This document shows positions 17,171 to 47,400 of a stretch of 64,000 bases of DNA, piece after piece. Source of the DNA: Shigella phage ESh15; sequence record ON528725. One strand, written 5' to 3'. The translations under genes and the position numbers were made by a program. Positions within the stretch are counted from its first letter, which is position 1; each line of letters begins with the position of its first letter. Below the pieces are notes generated by a model. That model worked only from the letters and a program-made list of their open reading frames with translations, had not been told where the DNA came from and did no database searches.

Positions 17171-17207
17171 ATTATTTTCCTCGGTTATTTTATTATCCAA
17201 CGAGAGA

Positions 17208-17236
17208 ATTATACTCATCTCTCAAGAGTTGTATAT
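17208..17236 (-). promoter_or_regulatory. sigma70-type promoter-like element with palindrome-flanked -10 (repeat copy 1)
   Basis: minus-strand TATAAT flanked by GAGAGA/TCTCTC inverted repeat; about 40 bp near-identical to the element at 47360..47400. Confidence 0.4.
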
Positions 17237-17475
17237 TATTTTTTAAGCATGAAAAGTAAGTAATTTGTATCACGTGGAGTAATATCAACACCCATATCAA
17301 AGATGCCTTTATAGATTGGGTATTTGTTTTCGGTTGTATCGAAGCTGAAACTATTTCCATCACAACTAACAGTAATAGCATCTGTTAAAATGTCATACTC
17401 AATCCTAACAATTGAATTCCCAATTTTAACGTCGAGGTGTTTTTTGAATTTGATAAAATCTAATTCTTGGGCCAT
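17236..17475 (-). CDS. hypothetical protein
   Basis: 79 aa from internal Met with GAGGAAAATATC RBS. Confidence 0.45.
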   Translation of the reverse strand: MAQELDFIKFKKHLDVKIGNSIVRIEYDILTDAITVSCDGNSFSFDTTENKYPIYKGIFDMGVDITPRDTNYLLFMLKK

Positions 17476-17537
17476 GATATTTTCCTCATTTAAGACGATA
17501 GGAAGATAATAACATGTCTTCCTATCGTTGTACATTA

Positions 17538-17750
17538 TTAACCGAACTTTTTAGCGCCTTTCCAGCCTTCGTACATAGCTGCACAAGTCAGTAGTACAGC
17601 GTGCTGGCATTCTTTGTATTTGTAAATCCAGAACCAGCGTAAAAAGTCTTCATCCTCAACACCATTGAGTTTCATGTTGGCAAAGAATTCTGCACGTTCT
17701 TCACGAAGTTGCCATGACACAATATTTTCAGGATTCATTTTATATTCCAT
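17538..17750 (-). CDS. hypothetical protein
   Basis: 70 aa ORF. Confidence 0.4.
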   Translation of the reverse strand: MEYKMNPENIVSWQLREERAEFFANMKLNGVEDEDFLRWFWIYKYKECQHAVLLTCAAMYEGWKGAKKFG

Positions 17751-17962
17751 GCCCCATTTTCATCGATGAACTTAATCCAGTCATTTACGGACCATTTAGT
17801 TGTATCACCCTTTGGATTAACATTTAAAGTATATAATCCCTGCTTAAAAAGCATTCGTTTGATATTCATAATTTCCTCAACTGTAACGATAACATTCGTT
17901 AGCTTTACGTTTGGCTTCAGTATGAGAAGTATTATAATCATAATCTTCTTTACTGTAAACAT
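17735..17962 (-). CDS. hypothetical protein
   Basis: 75 aa ORF. Confidence 0.4.
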   Translation of the reverse strand: MFTVKKIMIIILLILKPNVKLTNVIVTVEEIMNIKRMLFKQGLYTLNVNPKGDTTKWSVNDWIKFIDENGAWNIK

Positions 17963-18170
17963 CTTTTTTCAACTTACGAACTTCTTTGCGGAGTTGTCGA
18001 TTCATTTCGTTCTTGACTTCAGAATCAACGCCTTTCATACGTTTCCATTTATCTGAGCGGAAGATGTTTTCAACCATGTCTTTGTGGCTAACACCATCAG
18101 GAGCTTTACGCTTACCAAAATAGTCGTAATCGCGAACTTTCAAATCTTTACGACGATATGTTTTACCCAT
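17877..18170 (-). CDS. hypothetical basic protein
   Basis: start at internal Met with GAGGTA RBS. Confidence 0.4.
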   Translation of the reverse strand: MGKTYRRKDLKVRDYDYFGKRKAPDGVSHKDMVENIFRSDKWKRMKGVDSEVKNEMNRQLRKEVRKLKKDVYSKEDYDYNTSHTEAKRKANECYRYS

Positions 18171-18177
18171 AAGTACC

Positions 18178-18426
18178 TCAGAGGTTGATTGATACAATGC
18201 GTTTGATAAAATTCACTTCACTTACTGAAAGGTTTTTAAGACCGATTGATTCTAAACGCTGAGTAAGCGTCAACATCGGGATATAATCCCAATGAGTTTT
18301 ATTTGCTTGATAAGTACGAACGCCATTAGCAATTTCAACATGCAAATCTGAAATGGTAATGAATACCAGACGCTCATCATTAACTTTAAGGGTTAGAACA
18401 ACTTTCTTTGAATCTAAACTAATCAT
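18178..18426 (-). CDS. hypothetical protein
   Basis: 82 aa ORF. Confidence 0.4.
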   Translation of the reverse strand: MISLDSKKVVLTLKVNDERLVFITISDLHVEIANGVRTYQANKTHWDYIPMLTLTQRLESIGLKNLSVSEVNFIKRIVSINL

Positions 18427-18605
18427 AGTTTAATTTCCTTCGCGATTGAACAGAAGATACCACGGTCACAAAGCAGTTCACCAATTTCTGGATATTTGAT
18501 TGAACGATACCAAACATCCAGGCTTGAAATTCTGGTTATCCGTACTGCATTACCGTTGACAGAATAGTACTGGTCAACCTTAATTTCTTTATCTTCAATT
18601 GTCAT
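18423..18605 (-). CDS. hypothetical protein (60 aa)
   Basis: internal Met with GAGGAAAATAAA RBS; GTTTAC -35-like element just upstream. Confidence 0.4.
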   Translation of the reverse strand: MTIEDKEIKVDQYYSVNGNAVRITRISSLDVWYRSIKYPEIGELLCDRGIFCSIAKEIKL

Positions 18606-18740
18606 TTTATTTTCCTCTATAGTAGTTGGTTTAATCTTAACACATCTATTGAGGATGTAAACTGTTTTATGAAAATATTTTTGATTTGAGAGGGGCACAA
18701 GGAGATAGTGAAGTGAAGATTCCAATGGATTATATTAGAA

Positions 18741-18772
18741 ATGAGATAAAGAAGACCAGGCGGCACCTGGTC
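18741..18772 (-). terminator. rho-independent terminator
   Basis: GACCAGG-UGCCG-CCUGGUC perfect 7-bp stem followed by U-rich tract; overlaps stop of upstream gene. Confidence 0.55.
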
Positions 18773-19706: not shown

Positions 19707-20177
19707 TTAATCATGTTTCCACACCCCATCGGTATTTGACCAAAGTCGCTGATTATCTGATCCTCGCCACAGCTTTTTGGTCGGAAGATTCTTCTCATAC
19801 TTCCCATCAATAATAACATCAACATATTTAAGCATTTCTAGTTGTTTAATATCTTCAAAATTATATCCTGTCCACAACCAAATGCTTTTATTGGGATAAA
19901 GATTTTTAATAGTTTGAACCACAGAGTGAATCACATCTCTGTTATCAGGATAGAGAGGGTCTCCTCCAGTTATAGTCAATCCTTCTATATAATCATTATT
20001 CAAACATTCAATTAATTGTTCTAGTGTTTCACCAGTGAATGGAATACCATTTCTAGCATTCCATGTTGATTTATTATAACACCCTTCGCATTTATGCAAA
20101 CACCCTGTAACGAAAAGAACAACCCTACAACCAGGGCCGTTCACAAAATCGCAAGGATAAAATCTATCATAATTCAT
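19707..20177 (-). CDS. nrdG: anaerobic ribonucleotide reductase activating protein (radical SAM)
   Basis: 156 aa; Cys-rich N-terminus CDFVNGPGCRVVLFVTGCLHKCEGC. Confidence 0.9.
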   Translation of the reverse strand: MNYDRFYPCDFVNGPGCRVVLFVTGCLHKCEGCYNKSTWNARNGIPFTGETLEQLIECLNNDYIEGLTITGGDPLYPDNRDVIHSVVQTIKNLYPNKSIWLWTGYNFEDIKQLEMLKYVDVIIDGKYEKNLPTKKLWRGSDNQRLWSNTDGVWKHD

Positions 20178-23082: not shown

Positions 23083-23210
23083 AATAATCTCTTCCCATTT
23101 CCATATCAATTAATTCATTTATTGAAGGTTCATCATAACATGGTTCTTCGTCGTTGTAAACAGTTTCGACGTCTGGCTCGACAGTCTCCCATCGAGCAGA
23201 ATACCACGGT

Positions 23211-24233: not shown

Positions 24234-24508
24234 TATAATGTTCTCTCAAATTTGTGGAAGCATTTACGGCATTTCAATTTCAAGTTATCACTAGTCCAGT
24301 TAACCAATTGGACTTGGATAGTTCCACATTCCGGACACGGGTGTTTTGCTGCCGATTTGGCAGCATTTTCACGTCGTTCAACCATTTTCATTATTTCGTT
24401 CCATGCAGGAGGAACGAACTCTTCTTCACCGTGGATTTTATCTCGCTGAACAAATTCAATCTTTGAACTATCATCAATAAACTTAACTAAGCCATGATTA
24501 GTGCTCAT
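24233..24508 (-). CDS. zinc-ribbon protein
   Basis: CPECG...CRKC pair; start at internal Met with GAGGA RBS. Confidence 0.45.
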   Translation of the reverse strand: MSTNHGLVKFIDDSSKIEFVQRDKIHGEEEFVPPAWNEIMKMVERRENAAKSAAKHPCPECGTIQVQLVNWTSDNLKLKCRKCFHKFERTL

Positions 24509-24537
24509 ATCAATATCCTCTAGAAGACGTAGGTTCA

Positions 24538-25479
24538 TTATAACACCTCAATGGCATTTCGTAAACCATCCGCTTTCGCATTCAGAGCTTTTAACGATTT
24601 AGTTTGTTCTGCAATCTGGGCTTCGACTTCTTTCAGACGAGATTTGAGGTACTCACGTTCTTCGCTCAGGTTATCAACCTTTTCAACTTTAGGTTCTTTA
24701 GGCTTATACTCGTTAGGGTTCTTCAGTTTAATTTGAATTCGAGAACTGAATAACATTGAACCGGTATCTTCGGTTTCGTCATACATTTCTACCACGTCCA
24801 TGATTCTTAACATCATGCGAAGTTTATAAGACAGCGAACGAACGGTTTTATTGTGCTTCTTAATTTCTTCAGCTTTCATGGTGCCAAGATTACGTGAGTA
24901 ATAATAAGGAACCTGGATATCAATTGATAATGATGCGTTACCATTACCTGTTGGTTTGAATACTGCAGTAACCCAATCTTTAACATGAACTTTATTTGTA
25001 CGATCATCACCGCCTGTGAATAATTTACATGAATGTTTAAAAAGCATATTCACTTGGTTATTGAATTCACAAGCAAATTTATCAGCAAATTTAGTTTCAG
25101 GAATGGTAGATAACCAATCAGCCAAATGAGTCTTTTTAACATCATTAACAATAGTGAATTCAACCAAATCTGTTTTAGATGTCACAGATTTAATAAAGCT
25201 CGGCTTCATAAAGTTTTTAATGTTATCGCGAGCTACAGTAGAAGATAATAAACGAGAACGTTTGAACCATTGAAGCAGTGTCCCTAATGAATGAGAATAT
25301 GCATTTTGAGTATCTTTACAGATATGATTTTCTTGGCCTGTGTATGTACCAAAATCGCGAAGAATACCACTTACTACAACTCGGTGTGGAACATCAAATC
25401 CTAGTGCGCCAGTAGCGCGCTGAGCATGAACGTTAGCGATAAGACCGGCAAAGTATTCAATGTAATGTGAACGTGTCAT
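24538..25479 (-). CDS. hypothetical protein with C-terminal coiled coil
   Basis: 313 aa ORF. Confidence 0.5.
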   Translation of the reverse strand: MTRSHYIEYFAGLIANVHAQRATGALGFDVPHRVVVSGILRDFGTYTGQENHICKDTQNAYSHSLGTLLQWFKRSRLLSSTVARDNIKNFMKPSFIKSVTSKTDLVEFTIVNDVKKTHLADWLSTIPETKFADKFACEFNNQVNMLFKHSCKLFTGGDDRTNKVHVKDWVTAVFKPTGNGNASLSIDIQVPYYYSRNLGTMKAEEIKKHNKTVRSLSYKLRMMLRIMDVVEMYDETEDTGSMLFSSRIQIKLKNPNEYKPKEPKVEKVDNLSEEREYLKSRLKEVEAQIAEQTKSLKALNAKADGLRNAIEVL

Positions 25480-25541
25480 AATATTTTCCTCTCGTTAAGA
25501 TAGATTCATTATACTCCAACCATCCTTGGTTGTAAACTGAT

Positions 25542-26498
25542 TTATGATTTTAATGCATTCATTGCGTTAAAAAGTTTAGAGTACTGCAACTGGAGATTGG
25601 TCACCACCTGTTGAGCATCACGAAGCTTAGCTTGTGCCTTATCAAGTTCAGCAGACAGTTGGTCTACAGTAGCCTTGATTTGATTGTAATGATAATCTTC
25701 AGCCGGAAGAAGGTCATTAGAAACATTTAGTTTTACTGCCGACAGTTTGCACACATTTGGCGAACCTTTAAACATACCAGATTGTGCTGGAGAATATGCG
25801 CCTAGAACCTCTGCATTACCGACTGGTGTTGCTGTGATATTGCCTTCAAACAATGCATTTTCCTTTTTAAGATTTTGATAGTATTCAGAGTCTTTGTGCC
25901 ACCATGGTGCAGGAACCTTTTTACCAATAGATACACGAGCCTGGATAGCGATATGGCCCTTATTCTTGATAACGTCGATAATATTAAGCTCACGAGAATA
26001 AATTGCTTTAATCTCGTGGATATTATCACCTAAAACTTCCAACGCTTGGTGGAATACACGAGCAACGTTATCATTCTTAGGTTTATACGTAAGAGTGAAC
26101 TCATTCTCACTGATAACCATGATTTCTAACTTATCGTAAGTATATTTCAAATGTTTCATGTTAATTGCTTGAGGACGAATACGAGAAGCAATGGCCATCA
26201 GATTGTTAAGGTTATTCCGGAACTGCTTAGCGAAATATTGTCCTTCACCGCCAATACAAAAATTACGAAGTTTCTGTTTAGCCAGTAAACGACTGAACTC
26301 ACCGTTTTTAATGAACTCTTTAACTGGTGTGTTAGTAACGCATTCGAATTGAGTAAACTTACGAGAAGTAATCCCGTAATATGAACAGATTTCCTCAATC
26401 TCTTCAGGAGTCTTTACAGGCATACGGATAGGATTAGGTCCTGGAGTATATGCGTTCGAGGTAAATTCTTTGATAAGTTCTCTACGTGTAATAGCCAT
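25542..26498 (-). CDS. hypothetical protein with C-terminal coiled coil
   Basis: 318 aa ORF; upstream motif TTATACTCCAACCATCCTTGGTTGTA shared with next gene. Confidence 0.5.
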   Translation of the reverse strand: MAITRRELIKEFTSNAYTPGPNPIRMPVKTPEEIEEICSYYGITSRKFTQFECVTNTPVKEFIKNGEFSRLLAKQKLRNFCIGGEGQYFAKQFRNNLNNLMAIASRIRPQAINMKHLKYTYDKLEIMVISENEFTLTYKPKNDNVARVFHQALEVLGDNIHEIKAIYSRELNIIDVIKNKGHIAIQARVSIGKKVPAPWWHKDSEYYQNLKKENALFEGNITATPVGNAEVLGAYSPAQSGMFKGSPNVCKLSAVKLNVSNDLLPAEDYHYNQIKATVDQLSAELDKAQAKLRDAQQVVTNLQLQYSKLFNAMNALKS

Positions 26499-26553
26499 TT
26501 TATATTCCTCATGTTGAAAAATTTATTATACTCCAACCATCCTTGGTTGTACA

Positions 26554-27549
26554 TCATTCCTTAAGAAGTTTTACTACTTGAATAAGATTAGCTCGTTCTG
26601 TTTTATTTTTACCGTTTAAGCCTGCTAATCGTGAGATTTCATCGTCAGTCTGTTGAATAGTTACATTAAGTTCGTTAATCAAAGTTTCAAAGTATTTGAT
26701 TTGCTCAGCATGTTTTGATTCAAATTTCTGAACAGGAATAACGTCTTGGTTTAGTTCGTCAATAAGGTCTTTAAGAGCATCTTCTTGGTTTATATCATAT
26801 TCAACTTCTTTTATTTCTTCAACGAGCTCGTCTTTATATCTAACGTCTTTTAGTCCTGGAGCTGGTCCTGAAATCTCTTCTTTAAGAGTACAAACATACC
26901 CAATACGGTATCCAATGCCGTCTCGCTTGATATCAACTTCGTCGATAAATCCACAATGTTTAAGTCCAGAGCCGATTATGTCAAAATATCCTTGACGTCG
27001 TCCTTCAAACGTTACACGAACTACTAATACAGTTTTGCCACCAACCTTTTGAAGCTCACATTTATAAAAGTTTGTTGAACCTGAATAACGCGGATGAGTT
27101 TTAAAGTTCATCTGACGATCTAGGCCCATTTGTAAACGTGCTGTTACAGCCATAAAACGTGTTTGGTTCTCGTTAAGATGAGCAACAATCCATTTCAAAG
27201 GCATTTTACACTGTTCACGACCGAACAAGTCAGTACGTCCTAGATTACGCAGGATGTTGTTAGAGTTAATCATCGACAGAACGTTAAGTTTATTCAGCGC
27301 GCTGAAGATTCCATCAGCCATTGATTTTCCATAACCTTTACACGCTTTAATAAGTGCTCGTGGCAGATTAGTATAGATTTCAGACGGCATATGAAAATCA
27401 AATTTACTAGTCAGTAATTGATGAACTTGGATAGCGATTTGCTCATAATTAAGTGCTCTGCGATCATTATGGTCTTTAAACCACACTTTAATCTGTGAAG
27501 CACATAAACCGTTAATTTCATGTTTTACCGCATCAGATGTAATACTCAT
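26554..27549 (-). CDS. hypothetical protein with C-terminal coiled coil
   Basis: 331 aa ORF. Confidence 0.5.
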   Translation of the reverse strand: MSITSDAVKHEINGLCASQIKVWFKDHNDRRALNYEQIAIQVHQLLTSKFDFHMPSEIYTNLPRALIKACKGYGKSMADGIFSALNKLNVLSMINSNNILRNLGRTDLFGREQCKMPLKWIVAHLNENQTRFMAVTARLQMGLDRQMNFKTHPRYSGSTNFYKCELQKVGGKTVLVVRVTFEGRRQGYFDIIGSGLKHCGFIDEVDIKRDGIGYRIGYVCTLKEEISGPAPGLKDVRYKDELVEEIKEVEYDINQEDALKDLIDELNQDVIPVQKFESKHAEQIKYFETLINELNVTIQQTDDEISRLAGLNGKNKTERANLIQVVKLLKE

Positions 27550-27611: not shown

Positions 27612-28139
27612 TTATGCGTGAACCGTCTTTAAACGTTCTTCAAATTTCCGAAGAGTACTAATACGTTCTGCTTTCTGTTTTGTATAGTTTGCAATACGTT
27701 CTGAAGTGAGAGCGTATCGTTCGTTTACTGTTTCTTTCATGAAGTCAGGGATTTCACGAGAAGCTTTAATTTCATCAAACTTATCAAGTACTGCCTGATC
27801 TTCAGCGATTAAATTTTCGTACATCTCGATATCTTTCTTGATGAAGTCGATATCTTCCTGGGTTACTTTGGATAAACGAGATGCTTTATCCTTTTTGTAC
27901 TGCTCGTTAGTTTCACGAGACCAGAATAATGTACGTTTTTTGTTAGTGTTTTTGTAGACTTCCACAATTCCAACTGAATCGATGATAACAATCCAATTCC
28001 AGCGAGATTTGAAAATCTGACCTCCATCCACGGTAATCTCGTTACCATAAGCAACATCGTTAAAGAACTTGCTTTGTGCTTCAGATTTAAATTTACCGTC
28101 GTTATAATTTACCAGGTTGAAAATATCTTTAGCGTTCAT
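27612..28139 (-). CDS. hypothetical protein with C-terminal coiled coil
   Basis: 175 aa ORF. Confidence 0.5.
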   Translation of the reverse strand: MNAKDIFNLVNYNDGKFKSEAQSKFFNDVAYGNEITVDGGQIFKSRWNWIVIIDSVGIVEVYKNTNKKRTLFWSRETNEQYKKDKASRLSKVTQEDIDFIKKDIEMYENLIAEDQAVLDKFDEIKASREIPDFMKETVNERYALTSERIANYTKQKAERISTLRKFEERLKTVHA

Positions 28140-28166
28140 GTTTTACCTCCAGTAGTTGATAGGTCT

Positions 28167-28195
28167 ATAATAACATAACCATAGACCTTGTAAAC
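28167..28195 (-). promoter_or_regulatory. T4 early-type (sigma70) promoter
   Basis: minus-strand GTTTAC-N17-TATTAT; inverted repeat AGGTCTAT/ATAGACCT around the -10. Confidence 0.5.
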
Positions 28196-28623: not shown

Positions 28624-29616
28624 TTATTTCAGTAAAGTTACTTCGGAGATTTCCTCCCAACCATCTTTATCAGTTGAAATAAAATCTGCTACATAAAGAG
28701 CCGTACGTAATGATACATTGCGAAGACGAGATACGTTAGTCTTCATCCAGGACAATGCTTTATACGTTTCAGCATCAGTCAGACCACGTTTCTGCATCAT
28801 GTCAGTAGATAATATTACATCTTCAACTCGAACCATAATCTCTTCATTAGAGTGTACTCCAAGGTCCAAATAAACTGAACGAGATACTAAAGCTTGAAGG
28901 TGTGGAGCAAGTTTCGAACCACGTTCTAACTCTTTATCGATATCAACGTTTGTAATGAAAACGATAGTACCTTCAAACTCAAATTCTTTATCGATACCCT
29001 TATCATCAAGATAAGATGATGCAGTGCTCCAGCAAACTTTGCGTTTATCACCGGTATCTAATGCTGCTTTAAGAAGGTTCAGGATGTCCATATCTGAGAA
29101 TACGTCAACGTCGTCGATTAAGAGAACGCTGTCTGCATCACGGTTGAGCCAAAGTTGTTCGTAAAGGCCAATACCAGAGATTTTACCATTAATGCTTTTG
29201 TATTTGATGAAACCATTATCATTAGCATTATTAAGTGCTTTATCCAGAGAATACGTCTTACCAATACCAGCTGCACCTGAAATAATGAGTGAACGAATTT
29301 TGCCATCGATAATGCCATTCGTCATCATGTTCATTACTTTAAAGCGTTTGTTGATACGAGTTTTCATATCTTCAGTGCTTTCAACAACTGCAACTGGAGA
29401 TGTTTCAACTCCTTCCATTACGATGTCTGATTTGAAGACCCATACTCCACGTTCAGAACCATCAATCATAACGAAAATTTTACCATCACCTAAGTGGGAA
29501 CATTCAGGATTAAGCTTTGCCGGGAACCATGTCTTTGTGGCAACATAAGAACCAGAAATTTCGTTATTGCGATAGATACCTTTTTTGATTTGAACGTTGA
29601 ACATTTTATTCTCCAA
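28624..29616 (-). CDS. P-loop ATPase (AAA-like)
   Basis: 330 aa; Walker A GAAGIGKT, Walker B VLLIDDVD. Confidence 0.55.
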   Translation of the reverse strand: MENKMFNVQIKKGIYRNNEISGSYVATKTWFPAKLNPECSHLGDGKIFVMIDGSERGVWVFKSDIVMEGVETSPVAVVESTEDMKTRINKRFKVMNMMTNGIIDGKIRSLIISGAAGIGKTYSLDKALNNANDNGFIKYKSINGKISGIGLYEQLWLNRDADSVLLIDDVDVFSDMDILNLLKAALDTGDKRKVCWSTASSYLDDKGIDKEFEFEGTIVFITNVDIDKELERGSKLAPHLQALVSRSVYLDLGVHSNEEIMVRVEDVILSTDMMQKRGLTDAETYKALSWMKTNVSRLRNVSLRTALYVADFISTDKDGWEEISEVTLLK

Positions 29617-29643
29617 ATTTACTCATTTCGTTTCGATAGGTCT

Positions 29644-29672
29644 ATAATAACATGTTTAAAGCAAAAGTAAAC
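29644..29672 (-). promoter_or_regulatory. T4 early-type (sigma70) promoter
   Basis: minus-strand GTTTAC-N17-TATTAT upstream of the ATPase gene. Confidence 0.5.
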
Positions 29673-29674: not shown

Positions 29675-29893
29675 TTATTTGCGACGAGATTTTTTGGTAA
29701 GAGGTTGAAAGAACACTGCTTTACCGGCCGGGGTTAAGGTGACCCGTAATGCATTACCGATTCCTAAGGATGCTTTAACTAGACCTTTAGCTTTCAGTTC
29801 ACCGAATGCTTGACGTTGGTCTGCATCACGAGTGTTAACCATAAGACCTTTATCACCTGCTTCACGAATCATTTCTAACATTTTGGTTTTCAT
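29675..29893 (-). CDS. hypothetical protein (72 aa)
   Basis: start at internal Met with GAGGAGAA RBS; ORF-track start runs through the promoter. Confidence 0.45.
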   Translation of the reverse strand: MKTKMLEMIREAGDKGLMVNTRDADQRQAFGELKAKGLVKASLGIGNALRVTLTPAGKAVFFQPLTKKSRRK

Positions 29894-29921
29894 TTTGTTC
29901 TCCTCTTGTTTTGATAGGTCT

Positions 29922-29950
29922 ATAATAACATATCCTAAAAGCATGTACAC
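29922..29950 (-). promoter_or_regulatory. early-type promoter-like element
   Basis: minus-strand GTGTAC-N17-TATTAT. Confidence 0.4.
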
Positions 29951-32299: not shown

Positions 32300-32644
32300 A
32301 TTATTCACCAATTAAAGTTTCAACAAAATTCACCAAATCATTCAGACAAGCATCAACCTGATTTTCATAAAAGTCTTCGTTATCATTTACCGCATGATAA
32401 GCTACATCATTCAAATCTGAATCGGCTTCACGTAAGTTACGGATAAGTTCCATCAGTTTATTAGCTTGTTCACGGGTCATTTTACCATACTCGTTTCAAT
32501 AAGATTCACTATGCCGTTTACCATGTTATAAGTAAACATCGGATAATTGTATTGTACTACAACATAAGCGATAAGCAAAAGTTTCATTTTGTTCTCCGTT
32601 TGTTTTGATAGGACTACTATAACATAGTCCTACCAAGATGTAAA

Positions 32645-32878
32645 CTACCGATTGTGTTTTAAATGTTGATAAAGTTCTTCAACTTGTTTAGGGTCCAAAA
32701 CAATTAAGTCATTTTCTTGGCGAAGATAAATCCATCCCTTATCCCCAGGACCATTTTTACAAAACATCACCACCATATCATCATCTTCAGCGCTTTCAGG
32801 TAAAAGTTCAAGTACACCGTCTTCAGATTTTCCAGTATAATCGTAAAGCATAATGTCCTCACATAATCTCGTTAACAT
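32645..32878 (-). CDS. hypothetical protein
   Basis: 77 aa ORF. Confidence 0.4.
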   Translation of the reverse strand: MLTRLCEDIMLYDYTGKSEDGVLELLPESAEDDDMVVMFCKNGPGDKGWIYLRQENDLIVLDPKQVEELYQHLKHNR

Positions 32879-33038
32879 ACATTTGCAATTCGGTGTGGGC
32901 GTCGGCCATCTTTTTCATAGCTCTGTTAATGTCGATGTCTCCATCTTCGCAACCATGAGCATTTTCCCAATCGGATACAGAATTAGCATACTCTTCAATC
33001 AAAAACATCAACTTAGAAATCTTTTCTTTACGTGTCAT
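32859..33038 (-). CDS. hypothetical protein (59 aa)
   Basis: internal Met with GAGGAGAA RBS. Confidence 0.4.
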   Translation of the reverse strand: MTRKEKISKLMFLIEEYANSVSDWENAHGCEDGDIDINRAMKKMADAHTELQMYVNEIM

Positions 33039-33042
33039 AACG

Positions 33043-33094
33043 TTCTCCTCTAGTAAGTAAAGACTACTATAACACAACCTGAGGAGAAGTAAAC
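33043..33094 (-). promoter_or_regulatory. promoter enclosed by SD/anti-SD inverted repeat
   Basis: minus-strand GTTTAC then TTCTCCTC ... 8-bp perfect partner GAGGAGAA that is the downstream gene's Shine-Dalgarno. Confidence 0.5.
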
Positions 33095-33139
33095 TGATAG
33101 ATGCCAAAAAGCCCCAACCATAAGGAAGGGGCTAGTAAA

Positions 33140-35816: not shown

Positions 35817-36275
35817 CTAGATTTTAATCACTGCTTTAGAAGCTTTTCCTGGTAGTCGTTTACTGTTAATAATAGCCATTCTGCATTGAAGAGTCTTCAT
35901 TTTGAATGCCGGATTTTCGCGACAAACTGTAAGTCCTAACCAAAGATTTCCATCAGTTATTTCTAAACGGCCTGGGCGATATTCGACACCTTCGACAAAA
36001 TCTTCATCAACATCTGGACGTGCCGGCATTGATAAAAATTCTGCAACTTCTTTAACATGATTTTTTACTTTATGAAATAATTCAAAAACGTAATTCTCAT
36101 CTATTTCTCTCTGGATGGCACGATCTAAGAGATGTTGAGAATACTTGATATGAAAGCCTGGTAGTCCAAGAGACTTTGCAGCATCTTTTATACCGGCATT
36201 TATTTTGCGGAACTCCGTTTCAAAGATTCGACGGAGTTTATTACGACGGATAAAAACTTCCGAATTGATAGTCAT
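35817..36275 (-). CDS. regB: sequence-specific endoribonuclease RegB
   Basis: 152 aa; MTINSEVFIRRNKLRR...YSQHLLDRAIQREIDE matches T4 RegB. Confidence 0.85.
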   Translation of the reverse strand: MTINSEVFIRRNKLRRIFETEFRKINAGIKDAAKSLGLPGFHIKYSQHLLDRAIQREIDENYVFELFHKVKNHVKEVAEFLSMPARPDVDEDFVEGVEYRPGRLEITDGNLWLGLTVCRENPAFKMKTLQCRMAIINSKRLPGKASKAVIKI

Positions 36276-36281
36276 TTTGAT

Positions 36282-36332
36282 TTCTCCTCTAGTTGACAGG
36301 TCTATAGTAACACAACTAGAGGAGAAGTAAAC
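36282..36332 (-). promoter_or_regulatory. promoter enclosed by 13-bp perfect SD/anti-SD inverted repeat upstream of regB
   Basis: minus-strand GTTTAC-TTCTCCTCTAGTT-(19 nt with TACTAT)-AACTAGAGGAGAA-ATCAAA-ATG. Confidence 0.55.
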
Positions 36333-38412: not shown

Positions 38413-38742
38413 TTATACTCTAGGCTTTTGAGCTTGTTTGGTATTGGATTCCCACGCTGCTTTAGTAATTTTGTTAGCGGCATAGCCAAAGGCATTAGAT
38501 AGAACACCTTTAGAGTTGAATACATCCAATCCAATAAGTACACCGGCTGCGTTAAATTTAGGAGCAAAGTATGCATTAGTTTTAGAAAGAGCTTTTTTCA
38601 ATTCAGGGTCTTGAACCAAGCCATCAAAAACGCCTTTACCATTTACTTTATATGTTACTTTAGGATTTTTACCTTCTTCGATAGCAGCTTTCTGTTCCGC
38701 AGATAATGTAACTTCAGTGATAAATTCTTGATACGTTTTCAT
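38413..38742 (-). CDS. internal protein with capsid-targeting sequence
   Basis: N-terminus MKTYQEFITE matches the T4 internal-protein targeting sequence. Confidence 0.7.
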   Translation of the reverse strand: MKTYQEFITEVTLSAEQKAAIEEGKNPKVTYKVNGKGVFDGLVQDPELKKALSKTNAYFAPKFNAAGVLIGLDVFNSKGVLSNAFGYAANKITKAAWESNTKQAQKPRV

Positions 38743-39362: not shown

Positions 39363-39388
39363 TTTTGTTCCTATTCTTTTAATTTATG

Positions 39389-39703
39389 TTATTCTTTAGG
39401 GAAGTTTTTAGAGTATGCGTCATAAAGTTTATTACCGATGCGACGGAAGACTTTAGCTGCAAAACGGTTTTCAGGGTTTTTAATCATGATTTGCATCATG
39501 TAAGTTCCTGCATCCGAAAGAGCTTCTTCATAGTACCCGTTAATTTCTTTAAGAGTCCTACGTTTACCACCAGGACCATCAACAGTAATTTTCCATTTAC
39601 CTGTAGAAGTGCGGCTCGGTGGCTCAACTTGTTCAATCCAAATATAACCACCTTCAACGCGTTGGTTGGCGGATTCTGCAATAAATTCTTTATACGTTTT
39701 CAT
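39389..39703 (-). CDS. internal protein with capsid-targeting sequence
   Basis: N-terminus MKTYKEFIAE. Confidence 0.7.
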   Translation of the reverse strand: MKTYKEFIAESANQRVEGGYIWIEQVEPPSRTSTGKWKITVDGPGGKRRTLKEINGYYEEALSDAGTYMMQIMIKNPENRFAAKVFRRIGNKLYDAYSKNFPKE

Positions 39704-39766
39704 TTTTGTTTCCTTGTTTGTTTTGATAGAGTAATTATACCATATTAATACTTAAGCGTAAACAAT

Positions 39767-40027
39767 TTAAGCTTTACCGCCAGAAATAATTCCGAAGTTG
39801 TTAAAATCGTATCCAATATCGTCAACATCTACTTTAGGACTTGCTACAACATAAGCAATTTCACTACGTTTTGCATAGGTGTTGATTTCTTTACCATCGC
39901 CACCTAAGAAAGAATACCCATTACGTTTTAATGAGCCAAAGTCTTCCTCATCACCAATGAAAGCTTTAACTTTAAATTTTGGGTCTTTGGCATCTGCTTC
40001 AGTGATAAATTCTTGATACATTTTCAT
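39767..40027 (-). CDS. internal protein with capsid-targeting sequence
   Basis: N-terminus MKMYQEFITE. Confidence 0.65.
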   Translation of the reverse strand: MKMYQEFITEADAKDPKFKVKAFIGDEEDFGSLKRNGYSFLGGDGKEINTYAKRSEIAYVVASPKVDVDDIGYDFNNFGIISGGKA

Positions 40028-40033: not shown

Positions 40034-40447
40034 TTAGTAAATTGATTTACCATAGTATTTGTACCAAGTCGGACGTTGAGCAATTTTTTCATCTAAGCGT
40101 GCTTGACTTATCGCAATGGACGCTTCGGACGGGACATAATTATTACGAAATTCGGCAGGGATGTCGGAAATATCCTGGACAGTCGTGTCCTTGATTTTGA
40201 AACCACGTTTCAAACATTCAGCGATTAGCTCGATTTGGCGTAAACGTAAAAATTCGAGTTTGTCGTAAAAGAATGTTACGTGACCCTTGCCTAAGATAAA
40301 TGTTGGAGAGATTTTAAAATCCTTTACACGTTTACCGTTTTGAACATGTTTACGGACTGCACCAAATACGCGTGGTAATTCACGATACTCAGCCATAAGA
40401 TGTTGGTCGGTCAGTTCAGAAACAAGTGTTAAATTGATACGAGTCAT
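40034..40447 (-). CDS. denV: endonuclease V (pyrimidine dimer DNA glycosylase)
   Basis: 137 aa from [34 protein letters not shown], matches T4 DenV. Confidence 0.92.
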
Positions 40448-40450
40448 AAT

Positions 40451-40504
40451 TTCCTCCAAGTAGTTGATGAATGTATAGTATCAAAACCCTTGGAGGAAGT
40501 AAAC
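40451..40504 (-). promoter_or_regulatory. promoter enclosed by 10-bp SD/anti-SD inverted repeat upstream of denV
   Basis: minus-strand GTTTAC-TTCCTCCAAG ... CTTGGAGGAA-ATT-ATG. Confidence 0.5.
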
Positions 40505-40505: not shown

Positions 40506-40787
40506 CTATTTTTCTGAAGCGCCTGAAATATATTTTTCAAGACGTTGTTTCATCAGCGAGCCGTTCTTAGCGATTTCTTCCGGTTTATCGCACATACGCA
40601 ACAACGCTTCAAGCTTAACGATATCACTGGTGCGCTCAAATTTGCGAGTATCTATCTTACTGGCAAGTTCAGAAATACGTGCTAATAGACTTTCAGCTTC
40701 GACCAAAGCTGCACCTAGCTTAGTTGCAAATGTGTCAGTAGCTTCGTTAAGAATAGATTCTGATAAAAATTCACTATATGTTTTCAT
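40506..40787 (-). CDS. internal protein with capsid-targeting sequence
   Basis: N-terminus [10 protein letters not shown] from internal Met; ATGA overlap with lysozyme stop. Confidence 0.65.
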
Positions 40788-43166: not shown

Positions 43167-43472
43167 TTATTTTCCTCGACATTCTTTAATGAAATTTTCT
43201 AGATTGGTAGATTCAATAGCTTTTTTACGAGCTTCTGCATGTTCTTCTTCAGACAATTTACATTTATAATTAACCCAGACGTTATGGTCAAAACTAGTCG
43301 TGGCATATAATAACAAAGCCCCGACGAATAATAAAAACGGTGATAAGAATACAAAACCAGGAACACCATCCATATCGTAAGCCTTTTGTAATACTGCAAC
43401 AGAAAGAGTTGCGTAAAAAGGTGATGCAAATATTGTTAAAAGACCAATTCGGTTGGTTTCTGTTAATTTCAT
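43167..43472 (-). CDS. membrane protein
   Basis: 101 aa, two hydrophobic helices, GAGGAGAA RBS. Confidence 0.5.
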   Translation of the reverse strand: MKLTETNRIGLLTIFASPFYATLSVAVLQKAYDMDGVPGFVFLSPFLLFVGALLLYATTSFDHNVWVNYKCKLSEEEHAEARKKAIESTNLENFIKECRGK

Positions 43473-43542
43473 AATATTCTCCTCATGTTTTAATAGGACT
43501 ACTATAACATAGTCCTATAATTGTGTAAACAGTTTTGTGAAG

Positions 43543-44524: not shown

Positions 44525-44776
44525 TTAAATTTCACGACATGCGATATTATATTCATCCCAGAGGTCATCATGTGAAGCCTCTACCAATGGAACGATTGTA
44601 CCATTTATGTCTTCATTATAAGGACAAATTGTACAGTGCGCATCTTCGAATCGGATGCCTTTGTGTTCAGATTTTTTATAACGCATATCGAATATCTTTG
44701 CAAACTTTTCACGAGTAATAGTTTTAGCAACTACTTCGGTTCCGATACTTTCGTAATAAATCATTGTGGACTCCAT
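44525..44776 (-). CDS. hypothetical protein
   Basis: 83 aa ORF. Confidence 0.4.
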   Translation of the reverse strand: MESTMIYYESIGTEVVAKTITREKFAKIFDMRYKKSEHKGIRFEDAHCTICPYNEDINGTIVPLVEASHDDLWDEYNIACREI

Positions 44777-44827
44777 TTAATTTGATAGGACTACTATAAC
44801 ATAGCCCTATCTTGTTGTAAACTGTTT

Positions 44828-45025: not shown

Positions 45026-45034
45026 ATTGTTTCC

Positions 45035-45307
45035 TTAGCAAGTGTGAGAAGATGCAACCCAACCGCCATCTTCAAGGCTCAGGTTGTAGTCGTATTGGTA
45101 AACGTCAGCCCATTCAGCATAGCCGTTTTTTGTACAACGTTCAAGATCGGCTTTAAGATGTCCTGGTGAATGATAGGTTCCACCCATACCATAAGCTGGA
45201 TACAAGTCAAATGTTGTGTTTTGTTTATTGGCAATTTCTTTGGCTGCCTCAATAGCTGCATAGATTTTTGCTACGGCTTCAGCCAGTTCGGTTTGTTCTT
45301 TAGACAT
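45035..45307 (-). CDS. small protein, paralog family with C-terminal WVSSS..C
   Basis: 90 aa ending GGWVASSHTC. Confidence 0.45.
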   Translation of the reverse strand: MSKEQTELAEAVAKIYAAIEAAKEIANKQNTTFDLYPAYGMGGTYHSPGHLKADLERCTKNGYAEWADVYQYDYNLSLEDGGWVASSHTC

Positions 45308-45316
45308 AATGATTCC

Positions 45317-45622
45317 TTAGCACAATGCAGAAGACGAAACCCAAGCACCTTCAGTAATAACGTAACCATTACCTTCACGCTTAACGTCGCCACCATTATT
45401 TTCAATTTCATTTTTCATCCACTGGGATACGATTTCACCCTTAGGATAATAAGTACGACCGCTACCATAATCACCTACAGAAAATGATACAGCATATTGG
45501 TCTGCGATCTTTGTTGCTTCTTCTTCGATACGTTCAGCTTGATTCAGAAGTTTATAAATTGCATCTGAAGCGGATTTGGCATCATTAAACTCTGGCACTT
45601 TAATTTCAATAATCTTACTCAT
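45317..45622 (-). CDS. small protein, paralog family with C-terminal WVSSS..C
   Basis: 101 aa ending GAWVSSSALC. Confidence 0.45.
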   Translation of the reverse strand: MSKIIEIKVPEFNDAKSASDAIYKLLNQAERIEEEATKIADQYAVSFSVGDYGSGRTYYPKGEIVSQWMKNEIENNGGDVKREGNGYVITEGAWVSSSALC

Positions 45623-45720
45623 TTTCTACATTCCTTAATAAAGTTTTCGATTGTTTCATTTTCACGTCTAGCTAGGAGTTCATTATAACTAATCATTTGA
45701 GAAGCGTAAACAGCATAAAT

Positions 45721-46143
45721 TCAGTTAAGGCTTTTGCATCTTATCTCCTTAACGAATTCCATGGCTTCATTGTATTCATACTTTTTAACAGCTTCATCAT
45801 ACTGAGCTTGGGCTTTTGCGCACTGAACTTTCCATTCTCTTAATCGGGCTCTGTGATGACGGCCTTGGTGCCAATATCCTGCCCAATTAATAGGCATTAA
45901 TAAAAACGGTACAATAAGTGGTGCGACGAACATTAATGAAAATGCTGCATCAGACGATATAACTTCACTAGAATCTAAAACAGCTCCTATAATCATAAAG
46001 ATTAAAAATGCTAAAGCTAAAATAGGACCAAACAACACCTCATTAGGAATTAATTTACGTTTGTATTCGTATGCCCAGGGCTTAATTGGCATGTACAGGG
46101 TTGGCTTTGACATATTCTCTACATTCCATAATAAATTGCTCAA
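45721..46143 (-). CDS. membrane protein
   Basis: 140 aa ORF; true start probably an internal Met (about 46092-46113) given overlap with upstream gene. Confidence 0.4.
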   Translation of the reverse strand: MSNLLWNVENMSKPTLYMPIKPWAYEYKRKLIPNEVLFGPILALAFLIFMIIGAVLDSSEVISSDAAFSLMFVAPLIVPFLLMPINWAGYWHQGRHHRARLREWKVQCAKAQAQYDEAVKKYEYNEAMEFVKEIRCKSLN

Positions 46144-46705
46144 GGATTAAATTGTTAGTGAAATTAGGACTAACAACCATAGTTTCATAAAGCGCATCAA
46201 TAGCACTTAAAGCATCAACTCTTTTAAGCAAAGGCTTGCCTTCATACATAGTTTCAGAATCTACGATTAGCGTAAAGTAATATTTTTTATTATCGACTAG
46301 AACTTCAGTATCGATATAAAACATGTTAGACCTTAAAAGCTTATCTCTAAAACCATAATAATCTTCAGAGCGTTCGCTGATATATTCCCATTCAGTGTTT
46401 AAACAACAAACAGACCATGTAGGAGCAACGAAATCAGTGAATCTAATATCATGGTCTGCAACTAGTTTAGCAATAGCTCCGATATCATGAATCATAATAC
46501 CTGGGGCTAATAAAGATTTTCTGCTATGGCTAGCCGTTTTCTCAGTAGTCTCATAAGAAGACGACCAGTACCATTTACGTCCGGTTGCAACATATCGTAA
46601 TGAATCAACTAAAGACGTAGGTGGATTTACCTTATCTCGGAACTCTTCGAACATTGAGTCAATATCATTATTTTGGTTTCGCATGTTAACTCCTTTATTA
46701 TCCAA
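46082..46705 (-). CDS. hypothetical protein
   Basis: 207 aa ORF. Confidence 0.5.
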   Translation of the reverse strand: MDNKGVNMRNQNNDIDSMFEEFRDKVNPPTSLVDSLRYVATGRKWYWSSSYETTEKTASHSRKSLLAPGIMIHDIGAIAKLVADHDIRFTDFVAPTWSVCCLNTEWEYISERSEDYYGFRDKLLRSNMFYIDTEVLVDNKKYYFTLIVDSETMYEGKPLLKRVDALSAIDALYETMVVSPNFTNNLILEQFIMECREYVKANPVHAN

Positions 46706-46735
46706 AAAAGGAGGACCGGAGTCCTCCGTATTATT

Positions 46736-47329
46736 TTATTTCAAAGAGTTAATATATTCTTGTACATCAGCAGAAGTTGTTTCGACACCAGCTGGAGTGC
46801 CATTGAATGTTTCAACACGAGTCAGAGTGTCTTCGATATCAACCTTAGTCAGTGCAGCAATTTCGATTACATCATCGGCCGTAGAGATACCAAGGGCATT
46901 GGCTGCTCGAGTTTCACGAATGTATTCGAGTTTGATTGCCAGATTCTGACGAGCATCATCAAGTTCAACCACCTTACGAGCAATTTCAATTCGCATAGCG
47001 GCGTACCCGTCAGCTTTTGTATTAAGTTGTTCGGCTGTTCGACGATACAGAAGTCCAAGCTTAGCATGCATGGTAACATCTTGTCCTTCAGCCAGGAGCT
47101 TACGAATTTCACGTTCTTTAGAAGCGGCTTGCTTGTTCTTTTCATTAACAAGTTCGCGAATACGTTTTTCTTCATTAATAGATTTAACAGAAGCCGTTTT
47201 TAGTTCTTTGATTTGGGTAATCAACTTATCTGCGGCTGCGTTATACTGTTCTTCGACAGTCAGATTTTTAGCCATAGCAGTACCCAGTTTAGTGCGGATG
47301 AATTCAACAAGTTTCTTCAGTGTGTTCAT
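46736..47329 (-). CDS. coiled-coil protein (PspA/IM30-like pattern, tentative)
   Basis: about 197 aa from internal Met; long heptad-rich helices. Confidence 0.35.
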
Positions 47330-47370
47330 ATTATTACCTTTCAATTGGTGGTTTATTATCCAACGAGAGC

Positions 47371-47400
47371 ATTATACTCTGCTCTCAAGAGTTTGTAAAT
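47371..47400 (-). promoter_or_regulatory. sigma70-type promoter with palindrome-flanked -10 (repeat copy 2)
   Basis: minus-strand ATTTAC-N18-TATAAT; GAGAGC/GCTCTC inverted repeat around the -10. Confidence 0.45.

Follow-up and report, generated by a model that had tools for sequence, protein, structure and literature searches.

Stem-loops within or overlapping early promoters have been published as PeSL (promoter-early stem-loop) cassettes, with proposed roles as attenuators and recombination linkers (Arbiol 2010; Comeau 2014). A PeSL comprises a UP region, an early promoter, a stem-loop located between −35 and −10 or overlapping −10, a Shine-Dalgarno sequence, and an ATG; it is intergenic, occupies hyperplastic regions, and is associated with places where close relatives differ by insertion, deletion, or replacement. 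The T4 early promoters (Pe), and those predicted for RB69 in 2006 (PMC1524935), combine an A-rich UP element, a −35 GTTTAC, a 17–18-nt spacer, TGn, and TAnnnT, with C preferred at −3 to −1, and serve early genes on the coding strand from gene 55 to the ipI region.

Two other kinds of RNA hairpin are relevant. Those of the T4 genes e, soc, 49, and I-TevI sequester the ribosome-binding site: the 5′ arm lies upstream of the transcription start and the 3′ arm includes the Shine-Dalgarno sequence, so that long transcripts are predicted to be untranslatable and promoter-proximal ones translatable (PMC3014915). Intrinsic (Rho-independent) terminators also form stable intergenic RNA hairpins.

The DNA analyzed here, a 64,000-nt stretch (the window) of Shigella phage ESh15 (record ON528725), is 96% identical to genomes of Mosigvirus (RB69-like T-even phages). 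The favored reading, at a probability of about 0.8, is that σ70 early promoters of a T4-like phage are packaged as PeSL cassettes with hairpins in read-through RNA. Both the promoters and the stem-loop cassettes are already known.

Early promoters of the window

The initial annotation described a recurrent minus-strand intergenic motif as an early promoter, and both parts of that description hold. A scan of the window finds eight exact matches to GTTTAC-N17/18-TATWAT, all on the minus strand, against 0.10 expected. Relaxing the −10 to TAnnnT yields 22–24 sites, far above chance and again all minus-strand and nearly all intergenic, from ~17.2 to 52.1 kb. (The span first given, 17186–47400, begins correctly at ~17.2 kb but is slightly short, as sites reach 52.07 kb.) In most sites (A/T)nCCTATC comes next. 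The window scan finds nine matches to AGWCCTATC against 0.53 expected: on the minus strand at 28158, 29635, 29913, 32607, 44784, 48232, and 51672; and on the plus strand two mirror copies, one at 16507 and one at 51691, where it forms the 5′ arm of the 51.7-kb dyad. The example given initially near 43490, AGTCCTATT, differs from this sequence by one mismatch. A looser motif scan returns ~20 minus-strand sites. Finally, a position weight matrix trained on T4 promoters alone recovers 22 minus-strand sites and no plus-strand site, where random sequence gives ~0.1 per strand.

The window consensus reads aaaAaA.tGTTTAC...TaTGt TATaAT agaCCTATCaAaa...ggagAa...ATG. On the coding strand, the motif precedes the Shine-Dalgarno sequence and ATG of genes of the early region, and ~45 T4 sites have identical architecture. 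Judged by sequence, the motif is the strong σ70 early promoter of T4-like phages, without essential difference from those of T4 and RB69. This genome prefers TATAGT or TATTAT followed by AG(A/T)CCTATC, whereas T4 prefers TACTAT followed by ACAACTATC. Host RNA polymerase would recognize the A-rich UP element, the −35 GTTTAC, the TGn extended −10, and the −10 TAnnnT. Transcription is predicted to start ~7 nt past the −10, mostly at the A of CCTATC; this placement follows the usual 7-nt rule and one promoter name in the T4 record, Pe133295, which corresponds to the seventh nucleotide past the located −10. Each promoter, together with its Shine-Dalgarno sequence and start codon, would constitute an intergenic cassette of ~60 bp.

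All the cassettes are on the minus strand. About eight of the 24 lack a convincing hairpin, which shows that a cassette can do without the stem-loop. There is no hairpin in the cassette upstream of an internal-protein-like gene (39701..39763; motif and T4-trained matrix), that of the frd.3 homologue (47625..47685; −35 ATTTAC; T4-trained matrix), or an early-promoter-like site with a long leader (45620..45711), which the T4-trained matrix misses at 14 bits. The nrdC.2 promoter-like site (24506..24566), overlapping the nrdC.3 3′ end, is weak (14.9 bits) and lacks a clear hairpin. The nrdC.10 early promoter (29602..29672), followed by AGACCTATC, has no dyad; the cassette at 29891..29950 (−35 GTGTAC, then AGACCTATC) has one of only 4 bp; and that at 47836..47898 (−35 ATGTAC; −10 TACTAT, 47874–47869; 27.1 bits with the T4-trained matrix) shows weak pairing only. 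The sole palindrome of the nrdC.3 early promoter (25477..25537) lies within the spacer (CCAAGGATGGTTGG), and the nrdC.5 promoter (26496..26554; −35 ATGTAC) is a 92% copy of this 25.5-kb cassette core.

Two classes of dyad

The palindromes remarked on initially do exceed chance. In the window, duplexes between a spacer and its own downstream sequence have an energy of −10.5 kcal/mol, whereas permuted partners give −7.3 ± 0.58 (0 of 20,000 permutations); the T4 values are −11.4 and −7.0 (0 of 20,000). Each spacer, which contains the 5′ arm, is thus complementary to its own downstream sequence and not to those of other promoters. Predicted RNA folds of the hairpins range from −13.5 to −21.6 kcal/mol, with z < −2.5 in five of eight tested.

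Class A comprises 10 sites, at which the dyad extends across the −10 and the 3′ arm is the −6 to +4 region. The cassette of an internal-protein gene (51999..52065; −35 GTTTAC, 52065–52060; −10 TACTAT, 52041–52036; ATG, 52001) has the dyad GGATGA/TCATCC (arms 52057–52049 and 52037–52029). That of an ipI-like gene (51648..51710; −10 TATAGT, 51686–51681) has GATAGGACTA/TAGTCCTATC (arms 51701–51688 and 51682–51670; −18.3 kcal/mol; RNA fold −17.7 kcal/mol, z −4.2); the inverted repeat quoted in the initial annotation is exact here, at 51699–51671. Further examples are the tRNA.4 homologue (51270..51330; GATAGGGTAGT/ATTACCCTATC, −16.6 kcal/mol); the cassettes at 44762..44822 (GATAGGGCTA/TAGTCCTATC, one sense-strand G·U pair, −16.6 kcal/mol) and 43470..43530 (ATAGGACTA/TAGTCCTAT, −13.3 kcal/mol); a mobD.2-like small ORF (32585..32645; GGTAGGACTA/TAGTCCTATC, −18.6 kcal/mol); nrdC.8 (28137..28195; AGGTCTAT/ATAGACCT, −11.1 kcal/mol, with the register shifted 3 nt upstream relative to the other sites); and the cassette at 17473..17535 (−35 ATGTAC, 17535–17530; −10 TATTAT, 17511–17506; CGATAGGAAG/CTTCCTATCG, 17527–17518 and 17505–17496, −18.1 kcal/mol).

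Two motB-type cassettes complete the class: one upstream of the e.6 homologue (47327..47400; −35 ATTTAC; −10 TATAAT, 47376–47371; GAGAGC/GCTCTC), the other upstream of the gp55.2 homologue (17168..17236; −35 ATATAC, 17236–17231; −10 TATAAT, 17213–17208; GAGAGA/TCTCTC, 17223–17218 and 17207–17202). They contain the two near-identical ~40-bp copies noticed at first, which are 93% identical without gaps (17189–17230 and 47352–47393).

In class B the spacer pairs with the Shine-Dalgarno region, at four clear sites and two weak ones. At regB (36273..36332) the spacer TTCTCCTCTAGTTG is perfectly paired to CAACTAGAGGAGAA, which includes the Shine-Dalgarno sequence (−23.2 kcal/mol); at denV (40445..40504), TTCCTCCAAG pairs with the Shine-Dalgarno-containing CTTGGAGGAA (−19.8 kcal/mol); at mobD.2a (33036..33094) the pair is TTCTCCTC/GAGGAGAA (−14.8 kcal/mol); and at gp55.6 (18603..18662; −10 TAAGAT) it is ATCCTC..ATAG/CTATAGAGGA (−11.1 kcal/mol). 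Weak pairing of this type, TTCTTCC/GAGGAGAA, occurs in the cassette at 48210..48269 (17-nt spacer; −10 TATTAT, 48246–48241, then AGACCTATC).

Could the symmetry simply follow from the promoter consensus, with TGT before the −10 and TATAgT/AG.CC after it happening to be self-complementary? The innermost pairs (−16/−7 and −15/−8) are conserved promoter bases, and column shuffles still pair ~53% of cells in the main register versus ~38% in other registers, so the consensus itself accounts for some of the class A symmetry. However, the observed fixed-register pairing (58.2% of cells, versus 52.9 ± 1.2%) exceeds all 2000 shuffles, just as the spacer energies exceed all partner permutations; long perfect stems have non-consensus sequence (14 bp at regB, 12 bp at T4 57966); and the arms show compensatory changes. 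This explanation, in which the dyads have no function of their own, is largely rejected by the permutations, shuffles, and covariation, and is very improbable.

Covariation of the arms

Pairing is retained even though the arm sequences vary from site to site and between the orthologues of T4 and of RB69-like phages. Between window and T4 orthologues, own pairing is −12.0 and cross-pairing −7.8; for denV, where the T4 arms are CTCCTGTAG/CTACAGGAG, own pairing is −19.8 and −17.8 versus −8.6 and −12.6 across species. The T4 nrdC.8 orthologue is class B (GTTCCTC/GAGGAAC). The T4 e.6 promoter is unrelated to that at 47327..47400, but a homologous cassette stands at T4 motB with arms GGGACC/GGTCCC; six arm variants of this motB-type family all pair, including the compensatory change between the two ~40-bp copies, whereas six chance matches do not. 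At regB the GGAG is fully paired in seven of eight lineages, with lineage-specific distal stems. In three sister phages the G·U pair at 32585..32645 becomes G-C, through TATC to TACC; among sister phages that are 95% identical, some substitutions disrupt a pair with no compensating change, as in RB69 (GATAAGACTA) and phi25-307 (AATCCTACC). Pairs other than Watson-Crick are G·U, on the sense strand only. Stability favors the sense strand at 43 sites and the antisense strand at 14 (p = 1e-4), a bias that is partly compositional (cross-pair control, −7.0 versus −6.25).

These patterns bear on the suggestion, made initially, that a dimeric regulator could use the palindromes as operators; one candidate would be the factor responsible for T4 early-promoter shut-off. 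The dyads do overlap the −10 and start site, a location suited to a repressor; GATAGGACTA/TAGTCCTATC is common to five or six sites; and T4 early promoters are shut off by a still-unknown mechanism (PMC2988021, PMC3014915). Yet the window contains at least eight unrelated arm sequences (GATAGGACTA, GATAGGGTA, GGATGA, AGGTCTAT, GAGAGC, CGATAGGAAG, TTCTCCTCTAGTTG, and TTCCTCCAAG), the symmetry center lies anywhere between a point 2.5 nt upstream of the −10 and the Shine-Dalgarno region, a dyad is missing from a third of the promoters, and cassette copying explains the shared GATAGGACTA subset. The arms also show compensatory changes between paralogues and orthologues. An operator is thus not supported, and is very improbable. 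Covariation with retained pairing, and G·U pairs confined to the sense strand, instead fit an RNA hairpin in read-through transcripts.

Cassette exchange and read-through RNA

A role in recombination, proposed for PeSL elements in earlier literature, was also raised for these palindromes, and is backed in part by cassette swaps. Sister phages have different cassettes before the same gene: RB69 and phiC120 before the identical CDS at 51270..51330 (homology break at 51282), and RB69 before the CDS matching that at 51999..52065 (there with GATAGGACTA/TAGTCCTATC). In RB69, the half of the 47625..47685 cassette downstream of −10 is swapped for AGTCCTATC. One crossover falls within a −10: homology to three sister phages stops exactly at 48246. 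RB69 and phi25-307 carry a 250-bp insertion that begins at 45711, the first −35 base; in LF82-5, a replacement begins at 36336, by the regB cassette, and a deletion at 29653, just upstream of the nrdC.10 −10. Cassette junctions show an excess of indel breakpoints (10 of 17, against 15 of 68; OR 5, p = 0.006), a comparison made with wider windows at the junctions and crude gene calls.

Conceivably, the dyads are selected as DNA, as recombination or cleavage hotspots where phage nucleases (endonuclease VII or gp46/47, for instance) recognize cruciforms or single-strand hairpins, and the RNA hairpin is a by-product. PeSL mini-circles were shown in RB49/phi1 (PMC2839356), and the T4 record mentions a past report of the 14-nt loop of Pe133295 in inverted form. 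However, 28 of 40 breakpoints lie more than 30 nt from any cassette, others fall at non-palindromic repeats (the 5′ ends of internal-protein genes), and homologous exchange depends on how alike two cassettes are and not on the internal symmetry of either. Selection on DNA also leaves unexplained the Shine-Dalgarno pairing, the regB conservation across genera, and the sense-strand G·U bias, and is unlikely. In the favored reading, the likeness of the cassettes to each other also makes them homology patches for gene exchange between phages.

The favored reading takes the dyad to be the stem-loop part of the PeSL cassette. A transcript from the cassette's own promoter would start within or beyond the partner region of the 3′ arm, and would therefore lack the 5′ arm and remain unfolded; regB RNA from its own promoter is predicted to be unstructured. 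RNA from an upstream promoter would contain both arms and presumably fold, and may be marked or attenuated at each cassette.

The PeSL authors proposed that the stem-loops are terminators or attenuators, insulating cassettes from upstream transcription, a possibility that overlaps the favored reading and does not exclude it. An RB49 PeSL stem-loop lowered lacZ downstream of it to the same extent as rrnB T1 (PMC2839356), and the hairpins here, predicted to be stable, would form only in read-through RNA. Unlike intrinsic terminators, none of these hairpins is followed by a U tract (AUCAAAA comes next), which makes the published role doubtful for these stems; they are AT-rich and variable, not the GGGG/CCCC stems of RB49. 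Separate canonical terminators precede some cassettes (48983–49016, and the intrinsic terminator-like hairpin at 33101–33134, just upstream of mobD.2a), and T4 middle-gene expression relies on read-through of early units (PMC2988021). Termination as the function of the stem-loops is possible, if doubtful.

Class B suggests a further consequence. Pairing with the Shine-Dalgarno sequence, seen in six of 24 cassettes (two weakly), was not found described in the accessible parts of the PeSL papers. The internal promoter in the T4 e, soc, 49, and I-TevI cases is late, and the effect is delayed expression; here it is early, which by analogy would restrict expression to the early period. This is the sole, modestly new angle: with the ribosome-binding site hidden in read-through RNA, a class B gene would be translated only from its own promoter.

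A T4-type early promoter repeated along the minus strand

Between 27000 and 33000, the window shares about 96% identity with numerous genomes of coliphages and Shigella phages. One of these, phi25-307, is classed as a Mosigvirus, the RB69 group of T-even phages; the window's own identity to T4 is only 70-93%. Gene order follows RB69. The minus strand carries, in order, gene 43 through 55, 55.x, nrdH/G/D, 49, pin, nrdC.x, and mobD.x; then rI, tk, vs, regB, internal-protein genes, denV, e, and nudE; and finally e.x, two tRNAs, tRNA.x, and ipI-like genes. Late genes occupy the plus strand past about 55 kb. This places the motif sites in the classic hyperplastic early region of T-even genomes. Genes downstream of the promoters were identified from RB69 synteny. 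An Rfam scan of the window matched only the two tRNAs, both on the minus strand (49685-49758 and 49765-49836, the tRNA-Arg and tRNA-Met of RB69 and phi25-307), and nothing at the promoter cassettes.

The repeated motif is a T4-type σ70 early promoter; the initial annotation had already taken it for an early promoter. The pattern GTTTAC-N17/18-TATWAT has eight strict matches against 0.10 expected, without exception on the minus strand, and about 20 promoter sites appear when one mismatch is tolerated. The downstream element AGWCCTATC has nine matches against 0.53 expected: seven are minus-strand promoter sites; of the remaining two, one is the mirror arm in the palindrome at 51.7 kb and the other precedes gene 55. 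A weight matrix built from T4 promoters alone finds 22 minus-strand sites and no plus-strand ones, where random sequence yields about 0.1 per strand. Two more cassettes, at 17.5 and 17.2 kb and with weaker −35 boxes, came from repeat finding. The example sites named initially were all verified, but the one near 43490 reads AGTCCTATT. (A generic σ70 scan was uninformative, with 71 matches found against 71.9 expected; only the T4-specific consensus informs.)

Alignment of 18 sites on the −10 element gives the consensus aaat..t..aaaAaA.tGTTTAC-(17/18)-TaTGt TATaAT agaCCTATCaAaa...ggagAa...ATG. Its parts are an A-rich UP region, the T4-specific −35 GTTTAC, a TGn extended −10 (the TG flagged at most sites), the −10 hexamer, and a C-rich discriminator, with a Shine-Dalgarno (SD) sequence and start codon 20-35 nt beyond. 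The promoters sit 20-45 nt upstream of the SD and ATG of early-region genes, in the transcribed orientation, and the whole T4 genome holds about 45 minus-strand sites with the same architecture. T4 early promoters have been described as "uber" promoters that combine UP, −35, TGn, and −10 elements with extra conserved positions (PMC2988021), and 57 early promoters with a preference for C at −3 to −1 were predicted in RB69 (PMC1524935); the window motif agrees with both. The T4 RefSeq record annotates no promoter features, apart from one remark on Pe133295.

That remark bears on the transcription start. The coordinate in the name Pe133295 is the seventh nucleotide after a −10 hexamer located at 133307-133302. 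Because of this one named promoter and the usual −10 spacing, the start in the window is predicted to be the A of CCT-A-TC. A NAD-cap preprint describes 150 T4 start sites from dRNA-seq, 90 of them A, with the early −10 motif. The RefSeq remark itself concerns NC_000866 133300-133313 (33300-33313 of the T4 locus L004), noted as "inverted complement of previously reported sequence". This 14-nt stretch coincides precisely with the loop that the arms GGTAGAG and CTCTACC enclose. The discrepancy could be an old sequencing artefact at the hairpin or a genuine loop inversion.

Two near-identical copies of about 40 bp (17189-17230 and 47352-47393), singled out at the outset, are indeed 93% identical (repeat family D8). 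A middle, MotA-dependent promoter was considered for them and rejected: by eye there is no TGCTT box at −30, and a −35-like element, ATTTAC or ATATAC, is present instead. Three further consensus matches lie inside coding sequences on the minus strand, in gp55.5, nrdG, and the gp49.1 region (17931-17960, 20073-20101, and 23132-23161), and recur at the same places in T4 (41237, 42817, and 47428). No hairpin accompanies any of the three, which may be internal promoters or a result of coding constraint.

Predicted stem-loops with covarying arms

The palindromes reported around the −10 element also hold up. Each promoter's −35/−10 spacer was paired with the stretch from the −10 end to the start codon. 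Own pairs in the window average −10.5 kcal/mol, against −7.3 ± 0.58 for permuted partners; in T4 the values are −11.4 and −7.0 ± 0.40. Site-specific pairing beat all 20,000 permutations in both cases. The own-pair duplex reaches −7 kcal/mol or lower in 16 of 24 cassettes, and −9.9 or lower in 14. RNA folds of eight cassettes range from −13.5 to −21.6 kcal/mol, with z below −2.5 in five (−2.3, −1.9, and −1.0 in the others).

Two layouts can be distinguished. At ten class A sites (52.0, 51.7, 51.3, 47.4, 44.8, 43.5, 32.6, 28.2, 17.5, and 17.2 kb) the dyad straddles the −10 element, and the 3′ arm lies at about −6 to +4. In class B, the 5′ arm immediately follows the −35 box, the SD region of the gene serves as 3′ arm, and the predicted start falls between the two arms, in this subset only. 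Clear members precede regB (36.3 kb), denV (40.5 kb), mobD.2a (33.1 kb), and gp55.6 (18.6 kb); weak ones lie at 48.2 kb (48246) and 47.9 kb (47898). About eight cassettes have no convincing hairpin.

The nrdC.3 and nrdC.5 promoters (25499-25534 and 26516-26551) share a 92%-identical core with a small palindrome within the spacer (CCAAGGATGGTTGG), which fits the subclass of published promoter-early stem-loop (PeSL) elements with the stem-loop between −35 and −10. Upstream of gene 55 (16470-16535, minus strand), a dyad ATAGGTCT...AGACCTAT surrounds a TATAAT box that lacks a GTTTAC −35, so hairpins of this kind are not confined to early-type promoters. (Near this dyad, RB69 and LF82-5 carry a 184-bp insertion with an extra ORF, at 16535/16537.)

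Some of this symmetry comes from the consensus itself, whose TGn and −10 bases are complementary to one another. When 59 non-redundant promoters with 18-nt spacers are aligned without gaps, 58.2% of cells pair in the register centred on the −12/−11 step, against 28-49% in other registers. Column shuffles in the −12/−11 register give 52.9 ± 1.2%, and none of 2000 matches the observed value. Another part of the symmetry is true covariation.

The arms themselves differ from site to site, and include GATAGGACTA, GATAGGGTA, GGATGA, AGGTCTAT, GAGAGC, GAGAGA, CGATAGGAAG, TTCTCCTCTAGTTG, and TTCCTCCAAG. The motB-type family, which contains the two 40-bp copies, was collected from IMG/VR by a pattern that left the arms free. 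Its six arm variants all pair, by Watson-Crick or G·U pairs: GAGAGC/GCTCTC, GAGAGA/TCTCTC, GGGACC/GGTCCC, GGGACC/GGTCCT, GGGATC/GGTCCT, and GGGAGC/GTTCCC. None of six chance matches to the pattern in IMG/VR does so. At orthologous promoters of the window and T4, own arms average −12.0 kcal/mol, and cross-species combinations −7.8. Among the sister phages (95% identical) substitutions are few; some agree with pairing (at 32.6 kb, G·U becomes G-C), others disrupt it.

The regB leaders were compared across eight lineages (protein identity 40-98%) through per-lineage folds and arm-swap energies. In seven of the eight, the fold of the RNA from the −35 to the AUG has an energy between −14.5 and −22.4 kcal/mol, and every base of GGAG is paired. 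Distal stems differ by lineage: CUAGUUG/CAACUAG, CUUGACUG/CAGUUAAG, CUUUAUG/CAUAAAG, and UGUAAG/CUUACA. RNAalifold on a MAFFT alignment of these leaders recovers the 7-bp anti-SD core alone, because the lineages are out of structural register.

At 43 sites the hairpin is more stable on the sense strand, at 14 on the antisense (p=1e-4). Strong hairpins have values of −16.2 (sense) and −13.2 (antisense), since the non-canonical pairs are G·U rather than A·C; a cross-pair control shows a smaller difference, −7.0 versus −6.25. Together, arm covariation and sense-strand polarity point to a structure in single-stranded nucleic acid of sense polarity, RNA being the simplest case, and speak against an operator recognised by its sequence. 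The palindromic symmetry had initially suggested an operator for a dimeric regulator, but arm sequences and registers vary between sites, and no half-site is conserved.

The authors who defined the PeSL proposed attenuation or termination and demonstrated it for a GC-rich RB49 stem (PMC2839356). In the window, none of the promoter hairpins is followed by a U tract, and the reading as intrinsic terminators was rejected: no promoter dyad is among the terminator-like sites, and none has a T tail. A canonical terminator-like hairpin occurs separately as a repeat on the minus strand, at 33101-33134 and 48983-49016 (85% identical; GCCCC...GGGGC followed by TTTTT), and one copy immediately precedes the −35 at 33094.

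Exchange of cassettes, and apparently of internal-protein genes, between relatives

Among four sister Mosigviruses, one and the same coding sequence (5′-end identity of 95% or more) stands behind different cassettes, each with its own matched arms. Swaps are seen at 52.0 kb against RB69, at 51.3 kb against RB69 and phiC120, and at 48.2 kb against phi25-307; at 47.66 kb, the difference from RB69 is confined to the part downstream of the −10. Blocks of homology end at 48246 (inside the −10), 45711 (the first base of the −35), 36336, 51282, 51668, and 29653. Twelve of 40 distinct breakpoints lie within 30 nt of a cassette, while cassettes make up 4% of the region. Breakpoints fall at 10 of 17 gene junctions with a cassette versus 15 of 68 others (odds ratio 5, Fisher p=0.006), a comparison that uses crude gene calls and has wider windows at cassette junctions.

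Other breakpoints coincide with two repeat families: internal-protein gene 5′ ends and the terminator repeat, both copies of which are involved (33105/33133 and 48979-48983). Seven minus-strand genes share near-identical first 31-47 nt, coding for MKTYQ/KEFI... (38712-38742, 39332-39362, 39673-39703, 39997-40027, 40757-40787, 51620-51650, and 51971-52001), a match to the capsid-targeting sequence of T4 internal proteins. Breakpoints at 38712/38742, 39337-39369, 39674, and 51979 lie in these shared 5′ ends, so internal-protein genes appear to be shuffled through the repeats as well as through promoters.

In the window and in RB69, the promoter cassette of the e.6 homologue is homologous to that of T4 motB rather than that of T4 e.6 (window 47327-47400 compared with T4 69943 and T4 7191); relative to T4, the e.6 gene has acquired a motB-type cassette. 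The second motB-type copy precedes the gp55.2 homologue at 17.2 kb, and in LF82-5 this second locus bears the GAGAGC/GCTCTC arms of the e.6 cassette. Of the recombination hotspot initially suggested, the exchange has support, in cassette swaps and enriched breakpoints, but the dyad itself is unnecessary for it. A recombination-linker role for the cassettes is plausible, and has been published previously.

Indeed, the motif and its palindromes are already known elements. Arbiol et al. (2010) define the PeSL as an AT-rich region, a σ70-like early promoter, a stem-loop, an SD, and an ATG, and report promoter and terminator activity as well as inter-cassette recombination that yields mini-circles (PMC2839356). 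Comeau et al. (2014) add PeSLs of the T4/PST pair, whose promoter reads TTTACW-N17-TAYWAT and whose stems vary. Most of the window cassettes likewise have a stem-loop within or overlapping an early promoter, and the cassettes lie in hyperplastic regions with indels or replacements between close relatives. They are therefore an instance of the published element.

Read-through RNA and the anti-SD spacers

The predicted start would lie within or past the partner region of the 3′ arm, so that a transcript from the gene's own promoter would never include the 5′ arm. Folding would then be confined to RNA reading through from an upstream promoter; T-even early regions are overlapping read-through transcription units (PMC2988021). 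(Folds of regB RNA from the predicted start show no structure at all.) For class A, possible roles of such a hairpin are pausing, attenuation, RNA processing, or 3′-end protection.

In class B the fold would cover the ribosome binding site, and translation would come only from the gene's own early promoter. This suggests a model for a sizeable subset of T-even early genes, those with an anti-SD in their own spacer, in which upstream RNA hides the ribosome binding site and only RNA from the early promoter is translated. We put it at a little over one chance in three; it gains credibility because of the regB covariation. The genes concerned here are regB, denV, mobD.2a, and 55.6, and in T4 regB, denV, alc, nrdC.8, motB.2, ndd.4, and 30.8. 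In T4 e, soc, 49, and I-TevI, a late promoter lies inside a hairpin that sequesters the ribosome binding site (PMC3014915). The logic is the same, but the inner promoter is early here and late there. A review section on regB regulation makes no mention of translation restricted to the gene's own promoter.

Much of this is textbook T4 biology, here confirmed for an RB69-like genome, and PeSL stem-loops were already tied to modular gene shuffling. For annotation, the cassettes mark about 24 early transcription units where most genes lack a name. The sequence data alone settle one point: the palindromes show the pattern of an RNA-level structure with covarying arms rather than of a protein operator.

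The anti-SD subset, the sole part of possible specialist interest, would, if real, bear on the unsolved early shut-off in T4. If the model is true, synthesis of those proteins would stop automatically once the early promoters are silenced, despite ongoing read-through, and the principle of genes e, soc, 49, and I-TevI would extend from late to early promoters. It would partly explain how certain early proteins, and in particular RegB, a nuclease under tight control, cease to be made while their genes are still transcribed.
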